DNA of 64,000 bases, from the NCBI GenBank assembly GCA_963682135.1, contig OY821645.1, positions 32,001 through 96,000 on the forward strand, read 5' to 3'. A program made the translations under genes and the position numbers. Within the stretch, counting starts at the first letter, position 1; each line of letters starts with the position of its first letter. The notes below the pieces were generated by a model. That model saw only the letters and a program-made list of their open reading frames with translations, had not been told where the DNA came from and made no database searches. Below, piece after piece: positions 15,033-45,616 of this stretch. Source of the DNA: Methanothrix sp. Its GTDB lineage: Archaea; Halobacteriota; Methanosarcinia; Methanotrichales; Methanotrichaceae.

Positions 15033-15074
15033 TTGCCATTATTCAAATTGAATCCAAGGGAGTGAGGTGATATA

Positions 15075-18925: not shown

Positions 18926-19030
18926 TGAAATTGGATTACTTTCGGGGTGCTAGCATCAGATCTATTAAGATGAAATTAACCTAAGAATAATACCGTCTGT
19001 AAACGCACGATCTGGTGGGGATAAATAAAA

Positions 19031-20377
19031 ATGAGGATTCTGCTGGATAGTAAAATCTATGAGATAACGGCAGATCACGTTCTTTCGAACAATCTACAAG
19101 ATCTCTTAGATGTCCTAAAAGGAGTAGGAGCAGAGGTAATTACCGGACCGTTATCTTTGAAGGACCTAGTAAGAACGGACTTCGTAACCGACTTCTTGGT
19201 AACAGAAGATAGAGACATTCATAAAGATGCTAGCACAAGAGACTTGGACGATAGAGTCCTTCTGGTCGAAGAAGCGCTACAAATTTTTAATAGTTATATA
19301 AATAAAGATATTAAAATAGTGCCGCTTCCTTTGAAGCGTGAGTTAGTTCGGAATTTGAATTATGATGATCATATTTTCGACACGCTAAAAGAAGAATACA
19401 AGCCGAAGTTTGAAGAATGGTTTAAAAAGATCTCAAAGGAGGGTCGAAAAAGCTGGGTATACTATAGGAAAGATGGAACTATCGGTGCAATTCTTATTTA
19501 TAAATTGGAGACGGAGTCAATAGAGGATTCAAAGCCGCCTCTCCCGGAGAGAAAGAGGCTCAAAGTAGCTATGTTAAAGGTTACGTATATTGAGCACAAA
19601 ATTGGGGAGCTATTTATCAAAATGGCGGTGGATGTTTCTGTTAAGAATAACATCGAGGAGATCTATTTAACTCATTTTACCAAACCTAATGACCCGTTAG
19701 TCAAATTGATATCCGAATATGGCTTCAATAAAATAGCCGTAAAGAATAATGGGGAAGATATCTTTGCCAAAAGGCTAATAGTCGAGGGTGTTGTGTCAAA
19801 GAGATTTTCTCCAATCGAAATATCCAAAATATTTTATCCTAGTTTTTATGATGGCGATCAAGTAAAGAAATTCGTTGTTCCTATTCTTCCTGAGTATCAT
19901 AACAAGCTGTTTACCGACTTTTCCAGAAGACAAATTATGCTGCCAGAATACGCCGATGAATTCGTTGTTGAAGGAAATACCATAAAGAAAGCTTATCTCT
20001 CTCATTCGAATATTAAACGAATGGGACGGGGAGATCTTATATTATTTTATAGATCGGAAGATGAACAAGCCATAACATCTCTCGGTGTTGTAGAAGCAGT
20101 CTACACGGGCATAAAAGATGCTGGACAAATACTTCAACTCGTTGGAAAGAGGACCGTCTTCTCCCGTGAAGAAATCGATAAGTGGGTAGAAAAAAGCCCT
20201 GTATCAATCTTTCTTTTCAGACATCACTTCCATTTAATGAGGTCCGTGAACCTAGAGAAGCTAATCGATGGGCAAGTCATTAAAGCAGCTCCCCAGTCGG
20301 TGATGGAGATATCTAGCGAAAAATACGCACTAATAAAAAAAATGGGCGGTATCGATGAACGTTATATTGTCCATTAG
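19031..20377 (+). CDS. Shortened PIN + GNAT-like + EVE/PUA-like multidomain protein
   Basis: ILLDS...DFLVTED (PIN ends), KIGELFIK..EIYLT..YGF (GNAT-like), GNTIKKAYLSHS..GDLILFYRS (PUA/EVE-like). Confidence 0.7.
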   Translation: MRILLDSKIYEITADHVLSNNLQDLLDVLKGVGAEVITGPLSLKDLVRTDFVTDFLVTEDRDIHKDASTRDLDDRVLLVEEALQIFNSYINKDIKIVPLPLKRELVRNLNYDDHIFDTLKEEYKPKFEEWFKKISKEGRKSWVYYRKDGTIGAILIYKLETESIEDSKPPLPERKRLKVAMLKVTYIEHKIGELFIKMAVDVSVKNNIEEIYLTHFTKPNDPLVKLISEYGFNKIAVKNNGEDIFAKRLIVEGVVSKRFSPIEISKIFYPSFYDGDQVKKFVVPILPEYHNKLFTDFSRRQIMLPEYADEFVVEGNTIKKAYLSHSNIKRMGRGDLILFYRSEDEQAITSLGVVEAVYTGIKDAGQILQLVGKRTVFSREEIDKWVEKSPVSIFLFRHHFHLMRSVNLEKLIDGQVIKAAPQSVMEISSEKYALIKKMGGIDERYIVH

Positions 20378-20795
20378 GCCGAAATACGCGGAGTTGATAT
20401 TGAGCGGAGCAAAGAGATATGAGTTTCGCAAATCAATATTTAGTAATAAATATGTTGAAGAAGCTTATATTTATGAAACATATCCGATAAAAAAGATAAT
20501 AGGCGTATTTAATATTGGCAATATAATTAGAGATAGTCCTAAAAGCTTATGGGATCAATTCGGCCATCTTTCCGGGATGAATGAAGCTGAATTCTTCAAT
20601 TATTTCCAGGATATCCAAATCGGCTTTGCAATTGAGATCAAACACTTGGTGATCCTGGACACTCCAATCGATCCAAGGGAAAAGATTTTGGACTTCACTC
20701 CACCTCAATCCTTCTGTTACCTGAAATATTCCTTAGTTCCAGAATGTGTAGCTATTAACGGCCATACCGAGCCACGATTTGGAAGCTTCCTGTGA
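20355..20795 (+). CDS. ASCH/PUA domain protein
   Basis: ILSIRPKYAELILSGAKRYEFRK, YETYP..KIIG, PPQSFCY. Confidence 0.85.
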   Translation: MNVILSIRPKYAELILSGAKRYEFRKSIFSNKYVEEAYIYETYPIKKIIGVFNIGNIIRDSPKSLWDQFGHLSGMNEAEFFNYFQDIQIGFAIEIKHLVILDTPIDPREKILDFTPPQSFCYLKYSLVPECVAINGHTEPRFGSFL

Positions 20796-20797
20796 TC

Positions 20798-20940
20798 CTA
20801 ACGAGAAATGAAGTTGCATGCTGTGCAAAATGCTGCATAGTAAGCTCTGCTGATCGATGATCGCAACTTTGCCTCATCATTGGAGCTTTCGGCCAGCTCT
20901 TCCGCTAGCTCATGGTAAGACTTCCAGTTGAACTCTGCAT
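20798..20940 (-). pseudogene. Truncated HEPN-domain toxin remnant
   Basis: Hand translation AEFNWKSYHELAEELAESSNDEAKLRSSISRAYYAAFCTAC then stop; ATG at 20940 is out of frame. Confidence 0.65.
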
Positions 20941-20949
20941 GCCGCTCTG

Positions 20950-21324
20950 CTATCTGTATTCCACCTTAATACAGATATCTGCAGGCGAAGTGCTTGAGGC
21001 ACCAAGCCACCAGCTATCATCAAAAGCATCCAGCTTTCTGAGGGCATCGCTTGGCGGAAGGCTGGTAGATATGGAGATCAAAAGCTCTCTTTCATTCGGT
21101 GAGCCGGGATCTCTGAGTACTTCCATAAAGATCTCGCCCAGTGGAAAATGCTCTCGGATTCTCTCTTGCGCCTCTGAGACTAATGCAATGGCTGAAGGCT
21201 CCTTCTTTAAGAAGTCATACACATCATCAGGCCTCCGATGAGTATAATCCATGGCCATTGCCACAATATCCCTATTCAGATTATCAATTCCAGCGAACCT
21301 GGCTTCCAACTTTTGCACAAGCAT
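20950..21324 (-). CDS. Hypothetical protein, probable antitoxin partner of the HEPN remnant
   Basis: 124 aa ORF directly upstream of the HEPN remnant; VYDFL...ALRKLDAFDDSWW. Confidence 0.6.
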   Translation of the reverse strand: MLVQKLEARFAGIDNLNRDIVAMAMDYTHRRPDDVYDFLKKEPSAIALVSEAQERIREHFPLGEIFMEVLRDPGSPNERELLISISTSLPPSDALRKLDAFDDSWWLGASSTSPADICIKVEYR

Positions 21325-21423
21325 CTCCTGAATAATGATCCGAGTCGATAATATTTATCTCTTTGGTCTGCGAATATTGTCGCGGATCGTGTAGAGATCC
21401 GACAGGCAGTAAAGGATGAACGG

Positions 21424-22002
21424 ATGATCAATAATCGGTGGAAAGAAGCCTTCCTGGGAACTGTCCAGCATTACGAGAATGCCGGCCTGCTCCGAACGGC
21501 AGCCCTGGATGAGCGGCTGGCGGACTGGACGGCACACCTCACAGGTGCTGTGGTCCAGACCTGCGATAGCTTGGGCTGGGTTTCGGCTGCTAAGGGAAAT
21601 AAGCTGCATATCCTGCCCATACCCCACTGTGAATATCTCACCCTGGACGTTATGGCTTTCGCTCCTGCGTCCTCCGGCGGCTGGTGTTTTCCAGTCGCTG
21701 TCGCTGAGCTGGAGAACAGCCCTGACGAAAGAAGGATCGCTTATTCCCTCTGGAAGGTCCTCTGCGTGAGATCAGACCTGCGGATCGTCTTCTGCTACCG
21801 CCATAGCTTCGCAGACGCTCCGGCGCTGGTCAGATACCTTGGTCAGGAAGTAGTAAAGGCATTACCCGTAGAAGATCGAATGAACCTCAAAGGTGAGACC
21901 TACCTGGTCGTCGGAAGCAGGAACGATTCCGCCACTTTCCCTTACGGCTTCTTCAAGTGGTGGCAGCTTGACAAAAACACCGGAAACTTTAACGTTATGT
22001 AA
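21424..22002 (+). CDS. Hypothetical protein, possible PD-(D/E)xK-like nuclease fold
   Basis: EYLTLDVMAF...PVAVAELEN pattern; directly upstream of the DUF499 gene. Confidence 0.6.
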   Translation: MINNRWKEAFLGTVQHYENAGLLRTAALDERLADWTAHLTGAVVQTCDSLGWVSAAKGNKLHILPIPHCEYLTLDVMAFAPASSGGWCFPVAVAELENSPDERRIAYSLWKVLCVRSDLRIVFCYRHSFADAPALVRYLGQEVVKALPVEDRMNLKGETYLVVGSRNDSATFPYGFFKWWQLDKNTGNFNVM

Positions 22003-22027
22003 TTAAATCGCTTCCATCAACGGGAGC

Positions 22028-25000
22028 ATGGAAGAAATGGCACTTACACCCTGGCATAAATCGGCTACGCCGCGTGAAGACCTGCGCAAAGGCAAGCCAA
22101 TGGACGCAGCGGAATTCGCCGTAAACCTCGATCGAGTCAGGGATGGCAAAGCGCCTGATGATTACAAGGACCCAAGGCAGTTCTTCGAGAGAACTTACCT
22201 CACCAAGAATCTGACCGCACTGGCCGCGGAGGTACAGCGCCGCTTTTCCGGCATTCGGACGGAGACTTCCGCCGTCTTCAATATGGCCACCCAGTTTGGC
22301 GGAGGAAAGACTCACGCACTCACCCTGCTTTACCACCTGGCCAGAAACGGCCCGGCCGCTAATGAGTGGCCAGGCGTTAGTAAGATCCTGGGCCAGGCAG
22401 GACTTGATAGTATTCCAAGGGCAGCGACTGCCGTCTTCGTGGGCACTGAATTCGACTCTATTGCCGGAAAGGGTGGCAATGGAAACGGCGAGCCCCTGCG
22501 AAAGACGCCCTGGGGCGAGATAGCCTTCCAATTGAGCGGTGCGCAGGGCTTTTCTGTAGTCGAGGAGCATGATAAACTGAAGACCGCACCGGGCGGCGAT
22601 GTGATCCGCAGTTTTCTGCCTAAAGATCGGCCTTGCCTCATCCTCATGGACGAGCTGATGAACTACGTCAGCAGAAACCGCGAGTCCGGTCTCTCCGATC
22701 AGCTTTACAACTTCATCCAGAACCTGACAAACGTCGCCAGCGGTGAGGACCGGGTGGTCCTGGTGGCCTCCATTCCCGGTTCCCAGATGGAGATGAACGA
22801 AGCTGATTTTTCTGACTACAACAGCTTCAAGAAAATCATGGATAAGCACGGCAAAGCGGTGATGATATCCGCCGAGGCTGAAACCTCAGAGATCATACGC
22901 AGAAGGCTGTTTGAGTGGGGTCCTGAGGAAATATCCTCTGACGGAAAGATTCGGCTGGGCGCTGAAGCCAAAAAGACCTGCAAAGCTTACGCCTCCTGGG
23001 TCAAGGCTCATCGGCATCAAGTTCCTGGCTGGTTTCCTGTCGATCATGCCGAAGAAATGTTTGAGGCGACCTATCCTTTTCATCCCATGGTCCTCTCCGT
23101 CTTTGAGACGAAATGGCAAGCTCTTCCCAGGTTCCAGAGGACACGCGGCATTCTCCGTCTTCTTGCTCTCTGGGTATCCAAGGTCTATCAAGAAAACTAT
23201 ACTGACGCCCATTCTGACGCTCTAATCGGCCTTGGCACGGCTCCTTTAGAAGATCCGATTTTCCGTGCAGCTATCTTCGAGCAGCTCGGCGAGGATCGCC
23301 TGGAAGGATCAGTTACGACAGACATTGCAGGACGAAAAGAGGCCCATGCCGTAAGGCTTGACAATGAGGCCGGCTCTAGCATCAAGAAGGCCCGCCTGCA
23401 CCGGAAGGTAGCTACTGTCATTCTCTTTGAATCCAATGGTGGCCAGACACACGGCACACAAGCGACTCTGCCGGAAATACGCCTGGCAGTGGCGGAGCCG
23501 GATCTTGATATCGGAAATATCGAGACAGTCTTGGATACTCTTTCCAGCAACTGTTATTACCTGGAGGCCTACGGGACGAGCTACAGATTCGGTCTGCAGA
23601 TACAACTGCCCAAGATTCATGCCGACCGCAAGGCAAGTGTCCCTAAGCCGGAAATTGATGAGTGCTTGAAGAATGCCATAATTAAGGTCTTCAATGAAAG
23701 CAATATCATCAAGACGGTATTCTTCCCGGAGAAGAGCAGCGATATCCAGGATAATCCTGCCCTGGCCCTCATTGTCCTGTCTCCAGATCATCGCAGATTG
23801 GACCATGTGGCTATGGACCTTGTTGAGTCCATGACTAAAGATCATGGTACCTCTGCCAGGACGTACAAAAGTGCTCTGATCTGGGCTATGGTTGATAATG
23901 ATGCGAATCTGACGAGCGAAGCTCGTAATGCTCTTGCCTGGGAGAAGATCCATGATGAGGCGGATCAACTGCATCTCAACGAGAGGCAGAATAGAGAAGT
24001 AAACGAGAAGATCGGCAAAGCTAAACGAGACCTTAGAGAAGCAGTCTGGAGAAGCTACAAGAACCTTGCTATCCTTGGAAAGGATAACAGGATCTCCTTG
24101 ATAGATCTTGGCCTGATTCATTCCAGCGCCGCTAAGACCATTGTGGACCTTTATCTTATGCAACTGAGGCAGAAAGACACTATCACCAGCAGCATCAGCC
24201 CCAATTTTCTATTCAAGAACTGGCCCCCGGCTTTTAAGGAATGGTCGACGAAGTCGGTTCGTGATGCATTTTTTGCGTCACCTCAGTTTCCGAGAATATT
24301 GAATCCGGATGCTGTAAAGGAAGCCATCTCAAAAGGCGTTTCTAACGGGATCTTTGCATACGTTGGCAAGTCTGCAGCAGGCGAATATGATCCTGTCTAT
24401 TACAATATTGGCCTACTACCCGAAGAGGTAGAAATATCAGAGGAATGGTTCATTGTGAAGGAGCCCAAGACACCAGAGCTTCATGAGATCATTGTATCCC
24501 CTAATCAGACAAGCATCAAGCCGGGTGAGGAAGTTGCATTTACTGCAATTGGGCTAAGCAAGCAGGGTTTAGAAGTTAAGATAGATGCATTAAACTGGAT
24601 TGCAACAGGCGGCACTATCAATGCACCTGGTATCTTTAAGGCAGGGACCGAAGAGGGTGTTTTTTCTGTAAATGCAATTGCATGTGATGTCAAGGGATCG
24701 GCTTGTGTCACCATCTTAGCAGCGGGCGTGGGCCGAGCATTGAAACGTGTGACAGTATCTCCACAAGATTCGCATATCGGACCCGGCAAGACACAGGTAT
24801 TTACTGCAAAAGGATTTGACAAAGATGGCCTTGAAGTGCCATTAGTTAAGATCGATTGGAGTGCGACAGGCGGCACAATCGATGGTAATGGGGTCTTCCA
24901 GGCAGGCCAAGAGGAAGGCGTCTTCAAGGTAACTGCGATAGCGAGGGATGCTAACGGCTCTGCATCTCTTAAAGTCGGGTGGCTAAGTCCTCACTGGGAT

Positions 25001-25180
25001 GGAGAAATACCACATCAAAAATGGACACAATTCTATAACAGGATCCTATCTAAGTTTGCAGTCCGCAAAGGGTTGAAGCTGACGGTAGCCGTGGATATTT
25101 TGGATGCCTCTGAGGAAGAAGTTGAGGATATGAGGACGGCTCTACGCGAACTGGGTCTTGAGGATACAGTCATAGTGTAG
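22028..25180 (+). CDS. DUF499 AAA+ ATPase with tandem Ig-like C-terminal repeats
   Basis: PREDL, EFAVNL, Walker A TQFGGGKTH, Walker B ILMDE, YPFHP, FQRTRGILR. Confidence 0.9.
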   Translation: MEEMALTPWHKSATPREDLRKGKPMDAAEFAVNLDRVRDGKAPDDYKDPRQFFERTYLTKNLTALAAEVQRRFSGIRTETSAVFNMATQFGGGKTHALTLLYHLARNGPAANEWPGVSKILGQAGLDSIPRAATAVFVGTEFDSIAGKGGNGNGEPLRKTPWGEIAFQLSGAQGFSVVEEHDKLKTAPGGDVIRSFLPKDRPCLILMDELMNYVSRNRESGLSDQLYNFIQNLTNVASGEDRVVLVASIPGSQMEMNEADFSDYNSFKKIMDKHGKAVMISAEAETSEIIRRRLFEWGPEEISSDGKIRLGAEAKKTCKAYASWVKAHRHQVPGWFPVDHAEEMFEATYPFHPMVLSVFETKWQALPRFQRTRGILRLLALWVSKVYQENYTDAHSDALIGLGTAPLEDPIFRAAIFEQLGEDRLEGSVTTDIAGRKEAHAVRLDNEAGSSIKKARLHRKVATVILFESNGGQTHGTQATLPEIRLAVAEPDLDIGNIETVLDTLSSNCYYLEAYGTSYRFGLQIQLPKIHADRKASVPKPEIDECLKNAIIKVFNESNIIKTVFFPEKSSDIQDNPALALIVLSPDHRRLDHVAMDLVESMTKDHGTSARTYKSALIWAMVDNDANLTSEARNALAWEKIHDEADQLHLNERQNREVNEKIGKAKRDLREAVWRSYKNLAILGKDNRISLIDLGLIHSSAAKTIVDLYLMQLRQKDTITSSISPNFLFKNWPPAFKEWSTKSVRDAFFASPQFPRILNPDAVKEAISKGVSNGIFAYVGKSAAGEYDPVYYNIGLLPEEVEISEEWFIVKEPKTPELHEIIVSPNQTSIKPGEEVAFTAIGLSKQGLEVKIDALNWIATGGTINAPGIFKAGTEEGVFSVNAIACDVKGSACVTILAAGVGRALKRVTVSPQDSHIGPGKTQVFTAKGFDKDGLEVPLVKIDWSATGGTIDGNGVFQAGQEEGVFKVTAIARDANGSASLKVGWLSPHWDGEIPHQKWTQFYNRILSKFAVRKGLKLTVAVDILDASEEEVEDMRTALRELGLEDTVIV

Positions 25181-30519: not shown

Positions 30520-31826
30520 ACAGAGCGGGAAGTCCCCATCCTTCAGGGTGGGGATGAAAGCGGAGTCCTTTGCCATGATTACTTTCGCGCTGCCCTCAAC
30601 TAATATAAATATTAAGTATGCATATCTGTATTTATGATAATCAGCTACAAGTATCCCATCTTCCCTAACAAGGTCACTGCATGGAAGTTAGCGGAGAATT
30701 TGGATGCTTGCAGGTGGCTCTATAATCGGCTTCTCCAAGACCTGAATGAAGCAAAACGAAAAGGCATCAAGCTCAAGACCTATGATTCTCAGAACATGAT
30801 TCCTTCTTTGAAGCTCATAAATCCGAAGCTGAATCTCGTCTACTCTAAAGTTCTTCAGATGGTGAATTATACTCTTTGGTCTAACATCAAAGGACTCTTC
30901 GCATCAAAGAAGAACGGTCGGAAGATCGGTCATATTCGCTTCAAAGGGTATGGTTGGTACAATACCCTGAATTACAACCAATCCGGATTCAAGGTCGATC
31001 AAGATCACAGCATTTTGCATCTATCCAAGATAGGAGATATGCGGATCAAGATCTATCGAAAGATCGAAGGTTGCATCAAAGCTGTCATAATCAAGAGAGA
31101 AGGCAAGAGGTGGTTCGCCATAGTCCAGGCCGATCAGGAACCACAGCAGTTACCGGAAACTGGAGAAGCAGTAGGTCTGGATGTCGGTTTGACTTCCTTT
31201 GTGGTTGATTCTGTTGGCAATGAGATAGAGAATCCAAGATGTGGCGAGCAATCTGCTGATAAACTGGCAAGACTGCAACGAAAGCTAGCCAGAGCAGTGA
31301 GGGGATCGAATAATTATAAGTTCCTCAAGGATAAAATCGCTAAACTGCATAAAAGAATCAACTGCCAACGAGACGATTTCCTGCATAAGTTATCTCGGAT
31401 GTATGTCAACAACTTCGATATTGTTTGCGTCGAGGATCTTGATGTCAAAGGTCTGAAAGAGAAAGGCCATAATAATGGTATGCATCGCAGCATCCATGAT
31501 GCATCCTGGTCTAAGTTCATATTCATGCTTTCGTACAAGGCTCAAAGTGCTGGTCGAAAGTTGATAAAAGTAGAACCCAGGAACACCACTCAAAGGTGTT
31601 CAGCTTGTGGAAGCATCGTAAAGAAAGATTTGTCGGTACGAATACATGAGTGCCCTTATTGCGGATTCTCATGTGACAGAGACTACAATGCTTCCAGGAA
31701 CATACTCATCACAGGGATGGAACAGCCCGTAGCGCCCATAGAACCAAAACCTCTACATCACATAACAGTGATGCAAGTATTGGCGATGAAGTGGGAAGCC
31801 GCGCCCTTCAGGACGCGGTAGTTCAC
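30520..31826 (+). mobile_element. IS605/IS1341-type element encoding only TnpB (left boundary approximate)
   Basis: Left hairpin CCCCATCC-TTCA-GGGTGGGG (30534-30553); right hairpin GCCGCGCCC-TTCA-GGACGCGGT (31798-31819) followed by TTCAC ending 31826. Confidence 0.75.
30634..31821 (+). CDS. tnpB: RNA-guided endonuclease TnpB
   Basis: RuvC-I GLDVG, RuvC-II VEDL, Zn finger CSAC/CPYC, RuvC-III DRDYNASRNI. Confidence 0.95.
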   Translation: MIISYKYPIFPNKVTAWKLAENLDACRWLYNRLLQDLNEAKRKGIKLKTYDSQNMIPSLKLINPKLNLVYSKVLQMVNYTLWSNIKGLFASKKNGRKIGHIRFKGYGWYNTLNYNQSGFKVDQDHSILHLSKIGDMRIKIYRKIEGCIKAVIIKREGKRWFAIVQADQEPQQLPETGEAVGLDVGLTSFVVDSVGNEIENPRCGEQSADKLARLQRKLARAVRGSNNYKFLKDKIAKLHKRINCQRDDFLHKLSRMYVNNFDIVCVEDLDVKGLKEKGHNNGMHRSIHDASWSKFIFMLSYKAQSAGRKLIKVEPRNTTQRCSACGSIVKKDLSVRIHECPYCGFSCDRDYNASRNILITGMEQPVAPIEPKPLHHITVMQVLAMKWEAAPFRTR

Positions 31827-33235: not shown

Positions 33236-35191
33236 ATGTGGATCTTCGACTCTTACTACAAGGGCTGCGTGGAGCTGTGGGGCCGGGAGAGAGGTCTCAC
33301 CAAAGCCAGTGCGACCTATCCTCAATCGTTCTACATGCATCTTCCGGACCCTCCCGCTCACAGGGAGATGATCGAGGCTCTGGAGAGTCGCTTCAAGGTA
33401 GAGGATTGTAGCTTTAAAACCATCTTCGGCACTTTTCAGGGCCACAGGATATATGCCGACCGAAAAGTTGCCGAGAAGATCGAGATCCAAACCCGCCACC
33501 AGGTCGAACTCTACAATGTCGATGTCCGCCAGGACCAGCGTTATCTGGCCGAGCACAATCTCTTCCCCTGTGGAGATGGTGATGATTCCCGGTTCTCGCC
33601 CGACTTTGCCGTTCCCCTGACCAGCCTGAAGCTGCAGCTGGCCGGTGATCCTTCTCTGCCCGGGGATATCAGCATCAGTCGCATTGAAATCCAGAATGGC
33701 CGCAAGCGAAGGCTGGAAGGATCGGAGAGAATGGTTCTCTGTGACCTCCTGGATCTCATCAAGGCTCATGATCCCGACCTGATCCTGTGTCCTCATGCCG
33801 ACACCTGGATTCCCATCATCCTCCGCAAGGCCAAAAGATACGGCCTGCAGTCCACCATCAGCCGCAGCGGCTTCTTCAAGCCGATGGCCTCCAAGTCCTA
33901 CTGGAGCTATGGAAAGGTGAGCCACAAAGAGGGCGCTCTCATCCCCGAGGGCCGGATACTCATAGACACTGCCAGGAGCTTCGTCTATGCCGAGAGCGGC
34001 CTGAAGGGCGTACTCATGGCCTCCCGGCTCTCCGGTCTCTCGCCGAACCTCACGGCCCGCTTCACGCCCGGAACACTCATCTCCAGCTACGAGGTCTTCG
34101 AGGCGCTGCGCCGGAACATAGCAGTGCCCTTTCGCAAGAGAGATGCAGAGGGCCACAGAAATATTTGCGAGCTGAGGGCCTGCGACAAAGGCGGCATGAT
34201 CTTCCAGCCCGAACCTGGGGTGTACGAGGCCGTCCACCAGATCGATTTCACATCCCTCTATCCCTCGATCATTGTGAAGTACAACCTCTCCCCCGAGACC
34301 ATCAGAGATCCCGAGCAGAAGGGCTTTTTGAGCACCGTTATCTCCTCGCTGCTCAATTTGCGCATCGAGACCAAGAGGCGAAAGAAGATCGACCCGGATT
34401 ATGCCGGCATAGACTCCATCCTTAAGTGGATGCTGGTAACCTGTTTCGGCTACACCGGCTACCGCAATGCCAAGTTCGGCCAGATCCAGGTCCATGAGCG
34501 GATCACTGGTATCTCCCGGGAGCTGCTCATGCAGATCAAGGAGCTGGCCGAGGTAATGGACTTTCAGGTCCTGCACGGCATTGTGGACTGTTTATGGGTT
34601 ATTGGTGAGCCCATAGCCGGCTTCAAGGAAGCTGTGGAGAAGGAGACCGGCATCCTGACGGAGGTGGATTCATACGATTGGATCGCTTTCCTGCCCATGG
34701 CAGACGGCTTTGGTGCCTACAACCGCTACTTTGGGCGGCTGGACACGGGCAAGATGAAGATCCGGGGAGTCATGGCCCGCAAAGCAGATACGCCTGAGTA
34801 CGTGCTGCGCATGCAAAAAGAGCTGTTCGAGATCCTGGCTGGGGCAGGGAGCCGGGAGGAGCTGAGGAGGATGCAGCCAGAGGCGCGAGAGGTGCGCCGG
34901 CGGTACTTGGAGGGGCTTGCAGGGGCAGGTGTAGACATCCGGGAGCTGGCCATTCATCGCCGGGTCAGCAGGCGCAGCTACTCCCGCAGGTGTGCTGAGG
35001 CTATGGCGGTAGCCGCTCACCAGAAGCAGGGTATTGCCCTGGAGCCGGGGATGGAGATAGGCTACGTGGTGAAGGATGCCAAAAGGTGGGAGGTGGAACC
35101 GGATAGGACTGCATCGGAGTACGATGCCGGGTATTACCGCAAACTTCTGGATAAGGCCTGGGAGGAGGTGGCGTATGTATTTACCGTTTGA
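33236..35191 (+). CDS. polB2: Family B DNA polymerase, PolB2 group (altered catalytic motifs)
   Basis: DFTSLYPSII; KWMLVTCFGYTG; HGIVDCL in place of YGDTDS. Confidence 0.85.
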   Translation: MWIFDSYYKGCVELWGRERGLTKASATYPQSFYMHLPDPPAHREMIEALESRFKVEDCSFKTIFGTFQGHRIYADRKVAEKIEIQTRHQVELYNVDVRQDQRYLAEHNLFPCGDGDDSRFSPDFAVPLTSLKLQLAGDPSLPGDISISRIEIQNGRKRRLEGSERMVLCDLLDLIKAHDPDLILCPHADTWIPIILRKAKRYGLQSTISRSGFFKPMASKSYWSYGKVSHKEGALIPEGRILIDTARSFVYAESGLKGVLMASRLSGLSPNLTARFTPGTLISSYEVFEALRRNIAVPFRKRDAEGHRNICELRACDKGGMIFQPEPGVYEAVHQIDFTSLYPSIIVKYNLSPETIRDPEQKGFLSTVISSLLNLRIETKRRKKIDPDYAGIDSILKWMLVTCFGYTGYRNAKFGQIQVHERITGISRELLMQIKELAEVMDFQVLHGIVDCLWVIGEPIAGFKEAVEKETGILTEVDSYDWIAFLPMADGFGAYNRYFGRLDTGKMKIRGVMARKADTPEYVLRMQKELFEILAGAGSREELRRMQPEAREVRRRYLEGLAGAGVDIRELAIHRRVSRRSYSRRCAEAMAVAAHQKQGIALEPGMEIGYVVKDAKRWEVEPDRTASEYDAGYYRKLLDKAWEEVAYVFTV

Positions 35192-37484: not shown

Positions 37485-37774
37485 GAAAAGTTAAGATAGT
37501 AGTAATGCCATCTCGCGGATGCACTAGATTTGGCGAGCATGCCCCTGCCGGGCAGGGCCGTCCGGGCCAGACGGATGGACTTAATGGGACGGAGAACGTC
37601 CCATTTTCACGCATCGAGGTGGTGTTCAGTTTCCTAGGAGATGCGTGAAAGGTCTGTGCATATCGAAAAGGGCCTTATGCAACTGTTAACTTTCTGAAAG
37701 TATTAGTATAAGTTGACATTATGCGTGAAAATCGTCTTTTTTTCGATATCTGTGAAGGCCGAAAAATGGCCGCC
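37485..37774 (+). promoter_or_regulatory. CRISPR leader of array 1
   Basis: Homologous to 42991-43282; shared end TTTTTTCGATATCTGTGAAGGCCGAAAAATGGCCGC abuts the first repeat. Confidence 0.8.
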
Positions 37775-38471
37775 GTCTCCATGACTGAAAAGTCGTGGCC
37801 GAATTGAAACTAATGTACGTTCTGCGTATCAATGGTTCCCATGGTAGTCTCCATGACTGAAAAGTCGTGGCCGAATTGAAACTAAAAATCAGATACTAAC
37901 GTTTCGGACTCACGGTCAGGTCTCCATGACTGAAAAGTCGTGGCCGAATTGAAACCATTAGCTAACGCAAAAGAATACCTCGCGCTAACTAAGTCTCCAT
38001 GACTGAAAAGTCGTGGCCGAATTGAAACGCTCTGAAAGCTTGCGTTTCTCGCGTTCCATCTCTTTTGTCTCCATGACTGAAAAGTCGTGGCCGAATTGAA
38101 ACCTTTTATCAGCCATTATACAGCTTCTTGTAAACGAGTCTCCATGACTGAAAAGTCGTGGCCGAATTGAAACCTTGGTTCGGCAGGGAATTCTGTGAGG
38201 TTGTCTGACTGTCTCCATGACTGAAAAGTCGTGGCCGAATTGAAACGGAGAGCTCTGACATTAAATCGCCTCCGACCCTCGCCAGTCTCCATGACTGAAA
38301 AGTCGTGGCCGAATTGAAACCATCTACATCATGTAGTTTTTTCAAACTCACCACTTCCCTTGTCTCCATGACTGAAAAGTCGTGGCCGAATTGAAACTTG
38401 TCAAAGTTCTCTTTGAACTTCAACGAGTGGGCATTGTCTCCATGACTGAACAGTCGTGGCCGAACTGAAAC
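37775..38471 (+). CRISPR. CRISPR array 1: 10 repeats, 9 spacers (35-41 bp)
   Basis: 36 bp repeat GTCTCCATGACTGAAAAGTCGTGGCCGAATTGAAAC with internal hairpin and ATTGAAAC end; last repeat degenerate, fixing + orientation. Confidence 0.98.
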
Positions 38472-38559: not shown

Positions 38560-38796
38560 GTGCGGCTGGAAAGTGGCGGCGATACCGATTATGAGCTATA
38601 TGAGCTTATAGGCAAACACCCTGGACAGGGCGCTTATGAGCTCTCTAAGCTGAACGGCTGGACTGCAGGCCGCACACACTCATCAATATTGCGATTGGAG
38701 AAAAAAGGGCTCGTATTTGTGGAGCGCATTGTTCAAGGTGGGAGGACAAAGCTTGTGGTTCGTCCCAGGCCATGGCAGAATTTCTTCACACGATGA
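38560..38796 (+). CDS. Small winged-helix (MarR-like) DNA-binding protein
   Basis: LYELIGKHPG..AYELSKLNGWT..RTHSSILRLEKKGLV. Confidence 0.65.
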   Translation: MRLESGGDTDYELYELIGKHPGQGAYELSKLNGWTAGRTHSSILRLEKKGLVFVERIVQGGRTKLVVRPRPWQNFFTR

Positions 38797-38866: not shown

Positions 38867-40630
38867 TCACCGTCGGATCATTGAGACCGCTTTGGAAAAT
38901 ATCTTTCCCAAACCAAATCCGCTCTCATCCTTTAAAGACCAATCCTTTCCCATCTTTGCATCAGTCTCGCAAGGTATGACCTTTAGCATCTCATTTCCTG
39001 CCTGTTCCATTACTTCTTTGAGGAGCTTAGATGCTTTCGTTGCCTGTTTATCCGGAACTTCCAAAAGAATGCTGTCATGAACTGCATTAATAAGCCGAAA
39101 GTCGCTGTACGCAGGGGAAGCAATCTTTTCGTAGAGCCTGCCCAGAGCGATCTTTTGGAGATCAGCCCCTGTCGCCTGCACAGGAGTGTTTATCAGAGCA
39201 TTTCTGTGCTGAGGATCAACATACCTTATGCGTCCCAATGCAGATCTGGAAATTTTGTATGTCTCACTGCCGATAGCAGTAAGCCTTGCTCTATCTGAGA
39301 CCATTTGCTGCCAGCTCTTCAAACCGGGATAGGCGGCATAAAATCTATATAAAAATTCTTTTGCATCATCCTCGGTCAGGCTAGGCAGATTGGAGAGAAT
39401 CATATTTACTCCGCCCCCATAAATGGTCCCATAATTTAAAGTCTTGGCTATCTGCCTCTCTTCATCTGAGATCCTTGTCTTTTGAAAGATGGCCTGTGCC
39501 GTCTGCTTATGGGGATCAAGACCTTTCTTGAAGATATTTTGCATGGCTTTATCTCCGGAGAGCACGGCAATAATCCTCATCTCAATGGCGGAGAAATCCG
39601 CCTCCACGAAAGTCATTCCCTGCGAGGCCACAAAGAGCTTTTTCAGATGCGGCTCCCTTGGGATCTGCTGAATGTTCGGCCTGGAACAGGTGATGCGACC
39701 ACTTCTGCCGCCCAGCTGGGTCAGCCTTGGATAAATTCGACCTTCTCGGGCATTGTCCGTCCAATTTTTTAAAAATCCGATCTGCTGTCTGAGCTTTCTG
39801 TATTCGAGAAGAGAATTTATGAATGTCTCCTCTGGATGCACCAATAATATTCTCTCCAGGTCCGCAGCCGAAGTGCTCTCCAAGTTATATCCGTGGCTAT
39901 GCAACAACTTCTTCACGTGAACTGGATTGCGGGGATTGAATCCGCTCATTTTCTTCGACTTTGCATATTGTTGCAGCTTCTTCTCCAGTCTGTCCTTTTC
40001 TTTGACCAGACTCTCCAAAAGCCGCCGGCCTTTATCTTCGTTGAAGCCTATCCCGTTGTATTCGATCTCCACTAATGCGGGCAGTGCCTCAAATTCGATT
40101 TTGGCAACTTTTTCCAAACCCTGCATCTTGAGGAGAGCCCTCTGTTTAGCCTGGATCCTCTCCAGAATTGCGCAGGCTCTGGCGGCATAATCCATCTCTC
40201 TCGCCGAAGGCTTGCTTCCTTTGTCTGATGCTTTAGGACTGTCGTCAAAATGCCATCCCAATAAATCCCTGCAAATTGATTGCAGAGAATATTCTTGATA
40301 GGAAAGGCCATTGTCTAGAAGCTGTGAGGCCAGCATGGTATCCCAGAGATTGGGAAGCTCAAGTCTACTGTCGAAAATCTTTCTGATGACACCTAGATCG
40401 AACAGCAGATTATATCCCACAACCTGACAAGACGGGCACTCCAACAAAGGGATGATCTCGTCAAGCAGCTCTGGAGCCAGCAAAGCCTGACCGTAGTCAC
40501 CTGCAATCGAGATGAACCTGAGATTGGATGAGCTTGGCATGGAACCTGCGTCTGTACTCAAATGCAGATAGAAGGTGGAGGGCTCACTACGGGGCTTGCA
40601 GGACCAGGAAGAAAGAAGCGCTTTGGCCAT
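38867..40630 (-). CDS. polA: Family A DNA polymerase (no 5'-3' exo, degenerate 3'-5' exo) inside CRISPR locus
   Basis: SGRITCSRPNIQQIP, motif A ADFSAIEMR, motif B RQIAKTLNYGTIYG, NTPVQATGAD, motif C VHDSIL; GAGGAGGT RBS. Confidence 0.92.
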   Translation of the reverse strand: MAKALLSSWSCKPRSEPSTFYLHLSTDAGSMPSSSNLRFISIAGDYGQALLAPELLDEIIPLLECPSCQVVGYNLLFDLGVIRKIFDSRLELPNLWDTMLASQLLDNGLSYQEYSLQSICRDLLGWHFDDSPKASDKGSKPSAREMDYAARACAILERIQAKQRALLKMQGLEKVAKIEFEALPALVEIEYNGIGFNEDKGRRLLESLVKEKDRLEKKLQQYAKSKKMSGFNPRNPVHVKKLLHSHGYNLESTSAADLERILLVHPEETFINSLLEYRKLRQQIGFLKNWTDNAREGRIYPRLTQLGGRSGRITCSRPNIQQIPREPHLKKLFVASQGMTFVEADFSAIEMRIIAVLSGDKAMQNIFKKGLDPHKQTAQAIFQKTRISDEERQIAKTLNYGTIYGGGVNMILSNLPSLTEDDAKEFLYRFYAAYPGLKSWQQMVSDRARLTAIGSETYKISRSALGRIRYVDPQHRNALINTPVQATGADLQKIALGRLYEKIASPAYSDFRLINAVHDSILLEVPDKQATKASKLLKEVMEQAGNEMLKVIPCETDAKMGKDWSLKDESGFGLGKIFSKAVSMIRR

Positions 40631-40723
40631 TAGACCTCCTCAGATAAATCTTCATTATATGATTCTATTTCTGAAAACCTATATATCTTTCTGATGATAG
40701 TAGTAGCTTGGGGTTTTTTGGTG

Positions 40724-42451
40724 ATGGATAATTCTGGATCAAAAGCGGATGTGCCGGATCTAATCCCGGCCCGTATGCTCAGCGAGTTCGCCTACTGTCC
40801 ACGGCTCTGCTATATTGAGTGGATCGACGGCGAGTTCGCAGATAATGAAGAGACGGTGGATGGCAGGTTTGTGCATCGCCGGGTGGACGCAAAGGAAGAT
40901 ACTATTCCCGATGATGAGATCGAAACTGAGACCGAAACAGTTCACGCTCGATCTCTGTTTCTCACCGGCCCCAAGGTTGGAATTACCTGCCGGATAGATC
41001 TCCTGGAAGGTGATGGCGAAAGGGTGACGCCTGTAGATTACAAGAGAGGCAAAGCACCTAACATTCCCGAAGGAGCATATGAACCGGATCGCGTCCAGCT
41101 TTGCGCTCAGGGCCTGGTTCTGAGAGAGAACGGTTTCAAATGCGACAGTGGCATCGTCTACTTTGTCCGCTCCAAAAAGCGGATTTCTATAGCTTTTGAT
41201 AAAGCCCTGATTAAGAGGGCAAACGATCTTATCTCCGATCTGAGGAAAATTGCAGAAAAGCGAGAGATTCCTCCACCATTGCAGGATAGCCCCAAGTGCA
41301 ATCGCTGTTCTCTGGCGGGCATTTGCCTTCCTGACGAGGTAAACCTTCTGCGGGACTCGGATGGAAAAGAAGCTGGTGAGGGTGGGCTCCTGGGCAAGAT
41401 CAGGAGGCTTCTCCCGGCCAGAGACGACACTATGCCGGTCTACGTTGTGGGGCACGGCAATACCGTTCGCAAGAAAGGTGACCTCCTGGAGATATGTTCC
41501 CGAGATGACGTCGCAGCAGGCAAAGAAGGCAGAATAAAGGAAGTGAGGTTAAGAGAGATCTCTCAGGTGAACCTTTTTGGTGGAGTTGATGTCTCGATGC
41601 CTGCCCTTGTCGAGCTTATGCAGCGGGGCATCCCCGTCCTGCACTTCACAAGGGGTGGATGGTTTCAGGGATTGAGCGCCGGGCATACTCATAAAAATGT
41701 GCAGCTACGCATGCGACAGTTTGCCTGGGCTGAGGACCGCAAGAAATCTCTGTCCATCGCTCGCGCTATAGTCTACGGCAAGATCAAAAACTGCCGGATT
41801 CAGGTACGCAGGAACTACGCTAAAGCCAACGCCCAGTCTCCTGATAATGCACTGGACAGGCTGGAGCGTCTTTCCAAGGATGCCAGAAATGCGTCCGGCA
41901 TCGATAAGCTTCTGGGAATCGAAGGCGCGGCAGCCGAAGTTTACTTTGGCTGTCTTGGTCAAATGCTCAAAGCCGATCGTGGATTCTCCTTTGAAAACAG
42001 GAATAGGAGGCCGCCCAAAGACCCTGTTAACGCGGTTCTTTCCTATATCTATGCAGTGCTTGCCAAAGACATGTTTGTCTCCCTCCTGGCGGTAGGCTTC
42101 GATCCGTATCTCGGTTTCTACCACCAGCCCCGCTATGGCCGCCCGGCTCTGGCGCTGGACATGATGGAAGAGTTTCGGCCGGTGATTGCTGATGCCACTG
42201 CCATCACCCTATTCAACAAAGGTGAGCTATCAGATAAGGATTTTATCAAGACGGGAATCGGAGTGTCTCTGACCTCCAAGGGAAAGAAAAAGGTCATAGC
42301 AGGCTACGAGAGACGCATGGAGACGGAGATCACTCATCCCCTCTTCGGATACAGCGTCAGCTACAGGAGGGTTCAGGAAGTGCAGGCGCGGCTGTTGTCC
42401 AGAACAATTTCCGGTGAGATCAAGGAGTATCCTGCATTTTACAGGAAGTGA
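40724..42451 (+). CDS. cas4/cas1: Cas4-Cas1 fusion (type I-G/I-U)
   Basis: Cas4: YCPR, RIDLLE, DYKRG, QLCAQ, C..CSL..IC; Cas1: GIEGAAA..YF, RNRRPPKDPVNA, GFYH, LDMMEEFR; ORF extends to 40694. Confidence 0.95.
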   Translation: MDNSGSKADVPDLIPARMLSEFAYCPRLCYIEWIDGEFADNEETVDGRFVHRRVDAKEDTIPDDEIETETETVHARSLFLTGPKVGITCRIDLLEGDGERVTPVDYKRGKAPNIPEGAYEPDRVQLCAQGLVLRENGFKCDSGIVYFVRSKKRISIAFDKALIKRANDLISDLRKIAEKREIPPPLQDSPKCNRCSLAGICLPDEVNLLRDSDGKEAGEGGLLGKIRRLLPARDDTMPVYVVGHGNTVRKKGDLLEICSRDDVAAGKEGRIKEVRLREISQVNLFGGVDVSMPALVELMQRGIPVLHFTRGGWFQGLSAGHTHKNVQLRMRQFAWAEDRKKSLSIARAIVYGKIKNCRIQVRRNYAKANAQSPDNALDRLERLSKDARNASGIDKLLGIEGAAAEVYFGCLGQMLKADRGFSFENRNRRPPKDPVNAVLSYIYAVLAKDMFVSLLAVGFDPYLGFYHQPRYGRPALALDMMEEFRPVIADATAITLFNKGELSDKDFIKTGIGVSLTSKGKKKVIAGYERRMETEITHPLFGYSVSYRRVQEVQARLLSRTISGEIKEYPAFYRK

Positions 42452-42457
42452 TTTGAT

Positions 42458-42760
42458 TTGAGTGGAAGGAATTGTTATGTTGTAAGCTACGACATCATGG
42501 ACCAGAGACGATTACAGAAGGTCCACAAGACTATGAAGGGCTTCGGTGAGGCAATCCATTATTCGGTTTTTCGCTGTGATCTGACCGGCAAAGGCCGTGT
42601 GGAAATGGTGGCGGCGCTCACCGACCTGATCAAGCACGATCAGGACAGGATCATGATACTGGATCTTGGACCTATGGACGGCAGAGCGGATCAGAGGATT
42701 GAATTTCTCGGCATTCATGCCAAAGATCCGGACTCGCCCCGAAGGGCCGTTATCATATAA
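42458..42760 (+). CDS. cas2: CRISPR-associated endonuclease Cas2
   Basis: YVVSYDI...RRL.KV.K..KGFG..IHYSVF; directly after cas1. Confidence 0.95.
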   Translation: MSGRNCYVVSYDIMDQRRLQKVHKTMKGFGEAIHYSVFRCDLTGKGRVEMVAALTDLIKHDQDRIMILDLGPMDGRADQRIEFLGIHAKDPDSPRRAVII

Positions 42761-42905: not shown

Positions 42906-43012
42906 GACAATATCGCTGGGGAAAGTTTAGATAGTAGTAATCGCTAAAAGATCCTTCAAAATCTATTTCATGTTCCGACAATATCGCTGGGGAAAGTTTA
43001 GATAGTAGTAAT
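42906..43012 (+). repeat. Exact 36 bp direct repeat separated by 35 bp
   Basis: GACAATATCGCTGGGGAAAGTTTAGATAGTAGTAAT at 42906-42941 and 42977-43012. Confidence 0.95.
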
Positions 43013-43282
43013 GCCATCTCGCGGATGCACAAGATTTGGCGAGCATGCCCCTGCCGGGCAGGGCCGTCCGGGCCAGACGGATGGACTTAATGGGACGGAG
43101 AACGTCCCTTTTTTCCGCGCATCGAGGTGGTGTTCAGTTTCCCAGGAGATGCGCAGAAGGTCTGTGCATATCGAAAAAGACCATTTGCAGACAGTAACTT
43201 TCTGAAAGTATTGTAATAAGTTAACAACATGCGCTGAAATTGACTTTTTTTCGATATCTGTGAAGGCCGAAAAATGGCCGCT
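42991..43282 (+). promoter_or_regulatory. CRISPR leader of array 2
   Basis: Homologous to the array 1 leader; abuts the first repeat. Confidence 0.8.
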
Positions 43283-44494
43283 GTCTCCATGACTGAAAAG
43301 TCGTGGCCGAATTGAAACCACCATATTGATAGCATGGTTGCAACTATATTTTTTTCATGTCTCCATGACTGAAAAGTCGTGGCCGAATTGAAACATTACC
43401 GGACGTTTTGTCCGTGTCTAACCCGAACATGGTTGTCTCCATGACTGAAAAGTCGTGGCCGAATTGAAACCTCAACGAATAGTTGTTCTTCTCTTCGTGC
43501 CTGTGGTCTCCATGACTGAAAAGTCGTGGCCGAATTGAAACGAGCCGGATTGGTCGAGGGGCATCCAGCTCATCAAGTCTCCATGACTGAAAAGTCGTGG
43601 CCGAATTGAAACCCTTTGATGTTTGTTTCAAGGAACAGAAGTAAGGTTGTCTCCATGACTGAAAAGTCGTGGCCGAATTGAAACGTCCGAGATTGTAAAG
43701 GAAAGACATAAATCTTGACGTCTCCATGACTGAAAAGTCGTGGCCGAATTGAAACACGTTTACCGTTACGATATCACATTCTGCATAAATGGTCTCCATG
43801 ACTGAAAAGTCGTGGCCGAATTGAAACTGGTTTGCATATGTAGTATCCCACAATGCCATAGCCTGAGTCTCCATGACTGAAAAGTCGTGGCCGAATTGAA
43901 ACCTTGTTCGAGCTGTGCAGATTACATGAATCCGCACCGTCTCCATGACTGAAAAGTCGTGGCCGAATTGAAACTTGCCAATTTTTTGGAGCTCTTCCAA
44001 AATATACCTGGTCTCCATGACTGAAAAGTCGTGGCCGAATTGAAACTCCATTGTTACTCTCACGATTGACACCTTCTATTTTTTCAGTCTCCATGACTGA
44101 AAAGTCGTGGCCGAATTGAAACTATTTCTCGGTGCAAGAACCTCAACTTTCGCCATCTGTCTCCATGACTGAAAAGTCGTGGCCGAATTGAAACCTTCTT
44201 TTCGGTTGTTTTGAATACCGAACTGAAAAATTGTGTCTCCATGACTGAAAAGTCGTGGCCGAATTGAAACGCAGAATATCAATTTTTAAGTTTTTCGCTT
44301 TCTTTGACCGTCTCCATGACTGAAAAGTCGTGGCCGAATTGAAACTTCTTTCACTTCCATAAAACTCACTCTCCGTGAACGTCTCCATGACTGAAAAGTC
44401 GTGGCCGAATTGAAACCATCCTCAATACCGAACTGCTTCATACTTTGTCTCATCCGGAGTCTCCATGACTGGAAAGTCGTGGTCGAATTGAAAT
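43283..44494 (+). CRISPR. CRISPR array 2: 17 repeats, 16 spacers (35-42 bp)
   Basis: Same 36 bp repeat as array 1; terminal repeat degenerate (44459-44494). Confidence 0.98.
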
Positions 44495-44827: not shown

Positions 44828-45616
44828 ATGCCGATGAGGCCCACAGTGGCTCGCTTTGCTGTGACCGGCCAGAAGCTACCGCATCTAACAGAGACCATTA
44901 TTCTGGCGGAGAGGGTCCATGCAGCTCTGGTTCGCCTCTCCGACGGCTCTACTGTTTTCTCGGGATGTGATGAGCAGGGAAAGCCATTAGATGGGCATGG
45001 CCATGCCCATATCTTTTGCGAATCCAATATTGAATCCGGAAAATCCAATGAAGGCAAGATTACTCATATTACCATTTACGCTTCAATGGGATTTAGCTCT
45101 GAAGATATGCAGGCTCTGGAGAACCTCAGAGAGATCTGGGGAAGTAAAGACCCAGCGGTTCGTCTCCTTTTGCAGGGGCTGGGCAGCAGGGAGAACTCTT
45201 GCGGCCCGGACCCTGAGCGAGGCCACTGCCCGCTCTTGGCGAAGTCGAGAACCTGGGTCTCTCGCACGCCCTTCCTGCCTACGCGCCACCCCAAGGTCAC
45301 GCGGGCGGGCGTGCCCAAGTGCAACGCGCGGGGCTTGCAGATCGGCTCCCCGGAGCACGATCTCTTGCGGCTGCTGGAGCTGGCAGGACTTCCGGCACCG
45401 GTGGTTCTGGAGCCGGTGGCCGGCACAATCTTGGGCGTACGGACGGTTCCCTGGGCGAGCTTCGCCTGCCGGAGGAGCGGAGATGAGGGAAGGCAGGCAG
45501 CGGGGGCGGCACGCGGCTTTCGCATGGAATTTGCGGAAGAGGTGCAGGGGCCGGTGGCGGTGGGGTATGCGAGCCACTTTGGGATGGGGGGATTTGGGGC
45601 GGGTAGACCCAAATAA
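44828..45616 (+). CDS. csb2: Csb2-like RAMP, C-terminal (Cas6-like) half only
   Basis: GHGHAH, WVSRTPFLPTRHPK, C-terminal Gly-rich loop GPVAVGYASHFGMGGF; 262 aa. Confidence 0.8.
   Translation: MPMRPTVARFAVTGQKLPHLTETIILAERVHAALVRLSDGSTVFSGCDEQGKPLDGHGHAHIFCESNIESGKSNEGKITHITIYASMGFSSEDMQALENLREIWGSKDPAVRLLLQGLGSRENSCGPDPERGHCPLLAKSRTWVSRTPFLPTRHPKVTRAGVPKCNARGLQIGSPEHDLLRLLELAGLPAPVVLEPVAGTILGVRTVPWASFACRRSGDEGRQAAGAARGFRMEFAEEVQGPVAVGYASHFGMGGFGAGRPK

Follow-up and report, generated by a model that had tools for sequence, protein, structure and literature searches.

A polA gene, which codes for a DNA polymerase of family A, was found head-to-head with the adaptation genes cas4/1 and cas2 of a CRISPR locus in Methanothrix sp. 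The gene lies on the minus strand at positions 38867 to 40630 of the window, by which we mean the whole stretch of 64,000 nucleotides analysed here (contig OY821645.1). Its linkage to cas4/1 is conserved across divergent genomes, extends beyond local synteny and recurs in a second lineage of the polymerase; as a genomic association, the status of polA as a CRISPR accessory gene is therefore well supported. Judged by its sequence, we rate PolA as a putative CRISPR-associated polymerase of a new enzyme family and of a new origin. It may be a dedicated adaptation polymerase, engaged in gap filling or in prespacer synthesis, and we give this role a probability of about 0.5. An earlier note on this DNA had proposed a CRISPR-associated polymerase. 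The proposal holds as a genomic association; the Cmr/csb2C partner, the viral or plasmid descent, the accessory status and the unlinked distant homologues were absent from it.

To our knowledge, only two kinds of CRISPR-dedicated polymerases have been described, the reverse transcriptase (RT)-Cas1 proteins and the CRISPR-associated primase-polymerases (CAPPs) of the Prim-Pol superfamily. According to passages of the CAPP paper, CRISPR-specific replicases were undescribed before it (PMC8211822). The literature searched contained no account of family A polymerases with cas linkage; supplements, which lay outside the search, may list the gene. The main text of a preprint on CRISPR-linked genes (10.1101/270033) has no such passage, and its supplements may list the gene as well.

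Polymerase domains and linkage to cas4/1

The 587-residue PolA matched the Pfam family DNA_pol_A (PF00476) over residues 207-565 with 1.7e-66 and 225.1 bits against a cut-off of 34.3, which places it in family A. The best solved relatives were 8jrb_A (5.6e-59) and the Plasmodium apicoplast polymerase (3.4e-48). A partial match to DNA_pol_A_exo1 (PF01612, 36.4 bits, 5.8e-9) covered residues 58-162 and profile positions 67-167 of 173 and left the ExoI part unmatched; the domain remains recognisable by its fold. No 5'-3' exonuclease family of Pfam was matched, and the match to TIGR00593 began only at model position 404, so that the layout of a full-length bacterial DNA polymerase I (Pol I) was not found. 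The best NCBIfam match was NF011539, a bifunctional 3'-5' exonuclease/DNA polymerase, at 359.3 bits and below the equivalog cut-off of 640. The bacterial proteins of this type (PRK14975 models) have the same two-domain layout without a 5'-3' exonuclease, but differ from PolA in that they keep ExoI-III.

Alignments with bacterial relatives served to read the motifs. Motif A of the window protein is DFSAIEMR, motif B is RQIAKTLNYGTIYG and motif C is VHDSILLE. At the exonuclease sites LHL..TD replaces the D-x-E of ExoI and YAARAC the YAARDA of ExoIII, while ExoII reads YNLLFDL with its Asp kept. The window copy belongs to a lineage, termed A, of which 15 full-length proteins were compared. All 15 have lost the Asp and Glu of ExoI and the Asp of ExoIII and have kept motifs A and B and the Asp of motif C; the ExoII Asp is retained in 10 of them. 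Judged by these residues, the 3'-5' exonuclease (proofreading) site of PolA is dead. The polymerase motifs DFSAIE, B and HDS, the missing 5'-3' exonuclease and the dead proofreading domain (no D-x-E in ExoI, no Asp in ExoIII) had all been noted beforehand and were recovered here. In motif C the Glu is exchanged for Ser, giving HDS for HDE, in all 15 proteins of lineage A as well as in the exonuclease-intact relatives. Studies of Klenow mutants have shown that this Glu is important for catalysis. HDS is probably tolerated, because the exonuclease-intact relatives also have it.

The conservation of the gene pair was examined in 101 Methanotrichaceae genomes. PolA matches were obtained in 43 of them and fell into two lineages, A and B. 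Lineage A comprises proteins of about 590 amino acids with 58-100% identity, and 20 loci were fetched in addition to the window. The full-length gene was present in 15 genomes, the window included, and was adjacent to cas4/1 in all 15. The arrangement is head-to-head in 14 of these loci, two of which are cut by contig ends and one of which has a frameshifted cas4/1. In the fifteenth, L046, the locus is rearranged and polA converges on cas2-cas4/1 at a distance of 1.1 kb from cas2. Six further loci contained fragments of polA, three of them beside cas4/1 or its remnants (L047, L051 and L052) and three not (L048-L050). In L047 (G027:C79) and L051 (G100:C192) the 5' parts of polA and cas4/1 are both missing and cas2 is intact; it looks as if a single deletion took the divergent promoter together with both gene starts.

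The genes flanking the module in the window (NrpR, PolB and DUF72) are shared with the two closest loci alone, so the polA-cas4/1 linkage is more than a frozen neighbourhood. The distances of PolA and Cas4/1 co-vary across 11 loci (r 0.81; Mantel test, 0 of 5000 permutations). A core 10-mer resembling a B recognition element (BRE) and TATA box, ACCTATATAT, stands 5' of cas4/1 in each of 13 head-to-head loci; in the 3.04-Mb genome it occurs a single time.

Origin of PolA and the type III-B context

The nearest exonuclease-intact relatives with known gene context sit in integrated mobile elements. In L069 (9136-14316) such a PolA is encoded next to a DUF3854/DUF927 primase-helicase, with a terminase large subunit and an integrase nearby. 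In L053 (7215-10808) an integrase accompanies a 1197-residue fusion of a D5_N/DUF5906 primase-helicase to an exonuclease-intact PolA. Both stretches probably represent replication modules of Methanotrichaceae viruses or plasmids. At the five loci of the exonuclease-intact sub-lineage that includes L069, no cas genes were found nearby.

Trees were calculated with FastTree (95 rows) and with IQ-TREE under the posterior mean site frequency model (43 rows) and agreed with each other. In both, the polymerases of Methanotrichaceae make up a single clade that splits into two halves. One half unites the exonuclease-intact provirus lineage with the exonuclease-dead lineage B, the other L053 and four exonuclease-intact intermediates with the exonuclease-dead lineage A. 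Forcing the exonuclease-dead, CRISPR-linked lineages into one clade cost 290.8 log-likelihood units and was rejected by the approximately unbiased (AU) test, p-AU 0.00156, for a group that was defined after the tree had been seen. This topology suggests that PolA was recruited to CRISPR loci twice and lost proofreading each time. Since a regain of lost catalytic residues is unlikely, two losses are the simplest reading. PolA apparently descends from a replicase of Methanotrichaceae viruses or plasmids. A search of the family genomes with the intermediate P0071 returned lineages A and B only, and scans of viral and metagenome sequences returned only relatives of about 29-30% identity.

Lineage B is about 31% identical to lineage A. 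In a first batch of 20 loci, L053 grouped with the A half of the tree, five were exonuclease-intact without cas genes nearby and 14 were exonuclease-dead; cas4/1-cas2 lay within 10 kb in 8 of these 14. A second batch of nine contained one different, distant PolA (L224) and eight loci of lineage B, three of them with cas4/1-cas2 nearby. Taking the 14 and these eight together, cas4/1-cas2 lies within 10 kb at 11 of 22 loci. The complete arrangement is found in L055 and L219: cas4/1-cas2-array-polA(minus)-csb2C-cmr1-cmr2-cmr3-cmr4, which is a type III-B locus.

The csb2C gene of the window (44828-45616, plus strand) encodes a RAMP protein that resembles the Cas6-like, C-terminal half of the type I-G protein Csb2 (Cas5/6g). 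It matched TIGR02165 with 64.6 bits against a cut-off of 45, over model positions 252-487 of 492, and the PADLOC model Cas56g with 1.6e-50. A RAMP gene of this type precedes cmr1-4 in L055, and kin with cmr in the same locus are L035, L055 and L219. Of Csb2 itself, the C-terminal half alone is present. The best Cas3g match in the window genome reached 75.7 bits against a cut-off of 400 and lies in another locus. Among the other type I-G effector genes, Csb1 gave no match in the window genome, with a model that matched no control genome either, and Csx17 was not searched for. We infer that the effector partner is probably a type III-B Cmr module with the csb2C RAMP protein, rather than a type I-G effector.

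In the window genome cmr1-4 are found at about 800-806 kb of G000:C1, about 730 kb from the module. The region from about 800300 to 807040 holds cmr1-4 and a remnant of a lineage-B polA, with a csb2C fragment about 6 kb further on, and looks like a decayed cas4/1-array-polA-csb2C-cmr locus. A separate CRISPR locus near 2.29 Mb has its own cas1 and a different repeat. At G000:C1:2947922-2950358 a second csb2C-like gene adjoins a small array, the repeat of which is related (ATTTCCATTTCTGAAAAGAAGTGGCTCCATTGAAAC), and no adaptation genes were detected there.

Possible functions of PolA

When Cas1-Cas2 integrates a spacer, both strands of the first repeat are left single-stranded, and the reaction has to be completed by a polymerase together with a ligase. 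We propose that PolA, a Klenow-like enzyme derived from a replicase, with proofreading lost and expressed divergently from cas4/1-cas2, would supply DNA synthesis in spacer acquisition for the type III-B (Cmr) system. As the first candidate step it could fill the two repeat-length single-stranded gaps left by Cas1-Cas2; as the second it could make the other strand of the prespacer. An exonuclease-minus, Klenow-like enzyme encoded from a promoter region shared with cas4/1-cas2 would fit the gap-filling step.

There is precedent for such a role. E. coli Pol I is described as important for adaptation and has been proposed to fill the integration gaps (PMC4678826; PMC9048733). In the account of type I-E adaptation in PMC4678826 it is, like PolA, a polymerase of family A that has been implicated in the completion of spacer integration; it differs in being a housekeeping enzyme with no linkage to cas genes and with both a 5'-3' and a 3'-5' exonuclease. 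The Prim-Pol CAPPs are described as operonic with cas1-cas2 in type III systems and have been proposed to fill gaps or to make prespacers in some of these (PMC8211822). They share with PolA the linkage to cas1-cas2, the type III context and the proposed roles. In contrast to these enzymes, which belong to another superfamily and can prime, the window PolA belongs to family A, would, by what is known of the family, depend on a primer and appears to descend from replicases of viruses or plasmids.

Outside E. coli it is not settled by which polymerase spacer integration is completed, and a family A enzyme beside cas4/1-cas2 in an archaeal family would be a third candidate that is easily purified. 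Methanotrichaceae also offer natural controls in cas4/1-cas2 modules without polA and in the exonuclease-intact viral relatives. The case would exemplify how a defence system acquires a replication enzyme from its viral opponents, which apparently happened twice and with the same loss of proofreading. Exonuclease-minus, Klenow-like enzymes tuned to an integrase could have practical interest.

Several observations weigh against PolA as a dedicated adaptation polymerase. The loci are related by descent, and the 15 linked ones could be one inherited ancestral arrangement. The 101 genomes hold 56 full-length cas4/1 genes, of which 22 had a polA match within 15 kb on the contig; the other 34, some of them near contig ends, had none. 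In lineage B, polA lies between the array and csb2C-cmr, equally close to the effector genes and to cas4/1; many copies are frameshifted, and the window's own genome retains only a fragment of the lineage-B polA, a 107-residue remnant beside cmr. Another archaeal family of the phylum has an exonuclease-dead PolA with the unusual motifs DYAQFELR and NIGLIYG in 19 of 24 genomes (L176-L192). One annotated locus of this group lies among housekeeping genes (cobalt-transport, protease) and cas matches were obtained at 0 of 13 such loci, so loss of proofreading alone is no CRISPR signature. The exonuclease-intact intermediates P0059, P0066, P0070 and P0071 enter the trees without gene context. HDS in place of HDE in motif C leaves the activity level of the predicted enzyme uncertain.

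Ten of the 34 cas4/1 loci without polA were fetched, and polA was found in none of the ten stretches. One of them, L209, has lost polA and the promoter along with about 39 codons from the start of cas4/1. polA is accessory and not needed by cas4/1-cas2 in general. Outside Methanotrichaceae, PolA was matched in 31 of 401 genomes of the phylum, and 20 loci from these genomes gave no match to cas4/1, cas2, csb2C or cmr with Methanotrichaceae proteins as queries. No cas neighbours were found at 80 bacterial loci taken from among the matches listed; these are mostly ordinary Pol I and only the first 4 or 5 belong to the close (PRK14975-type) group, so they say little on the closest bacterial clade. 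The neighbourhood of homologues to cas4/1-cas2 was a check set beforehand. It came out positive for the 15 close orthologues; the exonuclease-dead lineage B is also embedded in CRISPR loci, and the more distant archaeal and bacterial homologues are not cas-linked.

Some family A enzymes copy RNA, among them the Tth polymerase and Pol theta, which has a dead exonuclease-like domain. PolA might accordingly stand in for a reverse transcriptase and use RNA templates as RT-Cas1 does, a reading that we regard as unlikely. Both lineages with CRISPR linkage have ties to Cmr (type III-B) genes, proofreading was apparently lost twice, and RT-Cas1 occurs with type III systems (PMC9048733). On the other hand, no feature of the PolA sequence predicts the use of an RNA template, and family A enzymes are mostly poor reverse transcriptases. 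None of the 25 spacers matched the own genome or the fetched loci (public viral collections lay outside that search). The RT-Cas1 proteins of type III and type VI systems (PMC9048733) resemble the window module in that a polymerase is attached to the adaptation genes of an RNA-sensing CRISPR type. They differ in their reverse transcriptase fold, in the fusion to Cas1 and in the RNA templating shown for them, whereas PolA is encoded by a separate, divergent gene. It is likewise doubtful that Methanotrichaceae twice turned a viral family A replicase, through loss of proofreading, into an adaptation enzyme that would copy RNA (or single-stranded fragments) into DNA prespacers of type III-B systems; if true, PolA would be the family A analogue of RT-Cas1.

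PolA could also serve defence outside adaptation, either as a domesticated viral replicase that blocks the replication of related viruses or by DNA synthesis in Cmr-linked interference. The apparent descent from virus or plasmid replicases and the position of lineage-B polA next to csb2C-cmr agree with this. A family A polymerase is described to work with the UG9 defence reverse transcriptases (PMC9226505), and the window PolA (P0001) matched the PADLOC model 'RTasPolA' with 1.9e-37, a model that any PolA may match. The UG9 system, as presented in PMC9226505, is alike in the recruitment of a family A polymerase to an anti-virus system but differs in its partner, a reverse transcriptase instead of Cas1-Cas2, and has no CRISPR. 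The constant neighbour in lineage A, however, is cas4/1 with a common promoter region and not cmr, which is about 730 kb away in the window genome. A defence function of this kind is improbable in our estimate.

Finally, PolA could be a passenger, either a remnant of a mobile element inherited with the CRISPR locus or a general repair polymerase with no role in CRISPR. Mobile-element ancestry, the many cas4/1-cas2 modules without polA, the deletion remnants (L047, L051) and the frameshifted lineage-B copies speak for it. The selection data speak against it. The ratio of nonsynonymous to synonymous substitutions (dN/dS) of lineage-A polA relative to the window copy was 0.08-0.17 for pairs with estimable dS, with orthologues down to 58% identity. 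By part it was 0.10-0.25 for the N-terminal dead-exonuclease part and 0.10-0.15 for the polymerase part; cas4/1 gave 0.05-0.12 and the intact lineage-B copies 0.11-0.22. Both polymerase lineages are under purifying selection. With frames intact at dN/dS 0.08-0.22, with an adjacency that outlives rearrangement and a changed chromosomal context, and with two separate lineages that are both CRISPR-linked, we regard a mere passenger as unlikely. Casposons are transposons with inverted repeats and a PolB in which a Cas1-family integrase adjoins the DNA polymerase gene; a transposon of this type was ruled out for the window by Cas2, Cas4, the two arrays with leaders, the PolA and a Cas1 that scores as Cas4g/Cas1g.

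Layout of the module and neighbouring genes

The host chromosome that contains the window is complete, archaeal, 3.04 Mb long and has 50% G+C. The window itself encodes a thermosome and NrpR, which points to an archaeal host, as does the origin of the homologues, labelled Methanothrix or Methanotrichaceae. The module consists, in order, of a leader with array 1, an open reading frame of 78 codons, polA on the minus strand, an A+T-rich spacer of 63-93 bp, cas4g/cas1g, cas2, a leader with array 2 and the csb2C-like RAMP gene. As the earlier note had it, polA lies between the two arrays and diverges from cas4/1-cas2 over less than 100 bp with TATA-like boxes.

The start-to-start gap between polA and cas4/1 is 63 bp with 71% A+T and contains TATATAT and TTATAT; it is 93 bp if cas4/1 begins at the ATG at 40724. 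The divergent promoter region (40631-40723) carries the BRE/TATA-like element GAAAACCTATATATC, with its core at 40677-40686. On the other side, polA has GGAGGT 3 nt upstream of its ATG. A scan for sigma-70 promoters and terminators stayed at background level; the model is bacterial and inapplicable to an archaeon. The gene for the Cas4g/Cas1g fusion (40694-42451, plus strand) is given as the longest open reading frame, from 40694, and its true start is likely to be the ATG at 40724, which is conserved and has the conserved start context GGTGATGGA. The protein matched NF049935 with 736.9 bits against a cut-off of 560 as well as Pfam Cas_Cas4 and Cas_Cas1. It is followed by cas2 (42458-42760, plus strand; PF09827, 1.3e-15; TIGR01573), a leader and an array, which together make up an adaptation module.

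Array 1 (37775-38471, plus strand) has 10 copies of a 36-nt repeat ending in ATTGAAAC, the last one degenerate with 2 mismatches, and spacers of 35-41 nt. Array 2 (43283-44494, plus strand) has 17 repeats, the last one degenerate with 3 mismatches, and spacers of 35-42 nt. The repeat was matched 27 times in the window against 0 expected by chance. The stretches of about 290 bp upstream of the arrays, at 37485-37774 and 42990-43282 (both plus strand), are 94% identical, so they are taken as a common leader.

The open reading frame of 78 codons (38560-38796, plus strand) separates array 1 from the 3' end of polA. The encoded product has a helix-turn-helix look and matched no family, and its membership of the module is uncertain. 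Counterparts were found in only three other loci, L051, L056 and L047. The window product is 91% identical to that of L056 8675-8905, which lies at the equivalent position of a lineage-B locus in a different genome. This likeness, despite polymerases of only ~31% identity, hints that the array-distal flank was exchanged between the two locus types.

Elsewhere in the window, a defence island at 11574-25180 encodes a SNF2 helicase (PADLOC HmaA, 5.9e-193), a DUF1156 methylase (HmaB, 3.6e-133), a DUF499 ATPase (HmaC, 6.8e-115) and an EVE-domain protein (PDC-M11A, 1.1e-119). A family B polymerase of 651 amino acids is encoded at 33236-35191 on the plus strand, 4 kb from polA, and matched NF004416 with 859 bits against a cut-off of 516; its match to Pfam DNA_pol_B is only short. 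Its gene adjoins a TnpB/IS605 OrfB gene (30634-31821, plus strand). A DDE transposase gene (PF01609; 48858-50414, minus strand) is located soon after the thermosome and rubrerythrin genes.

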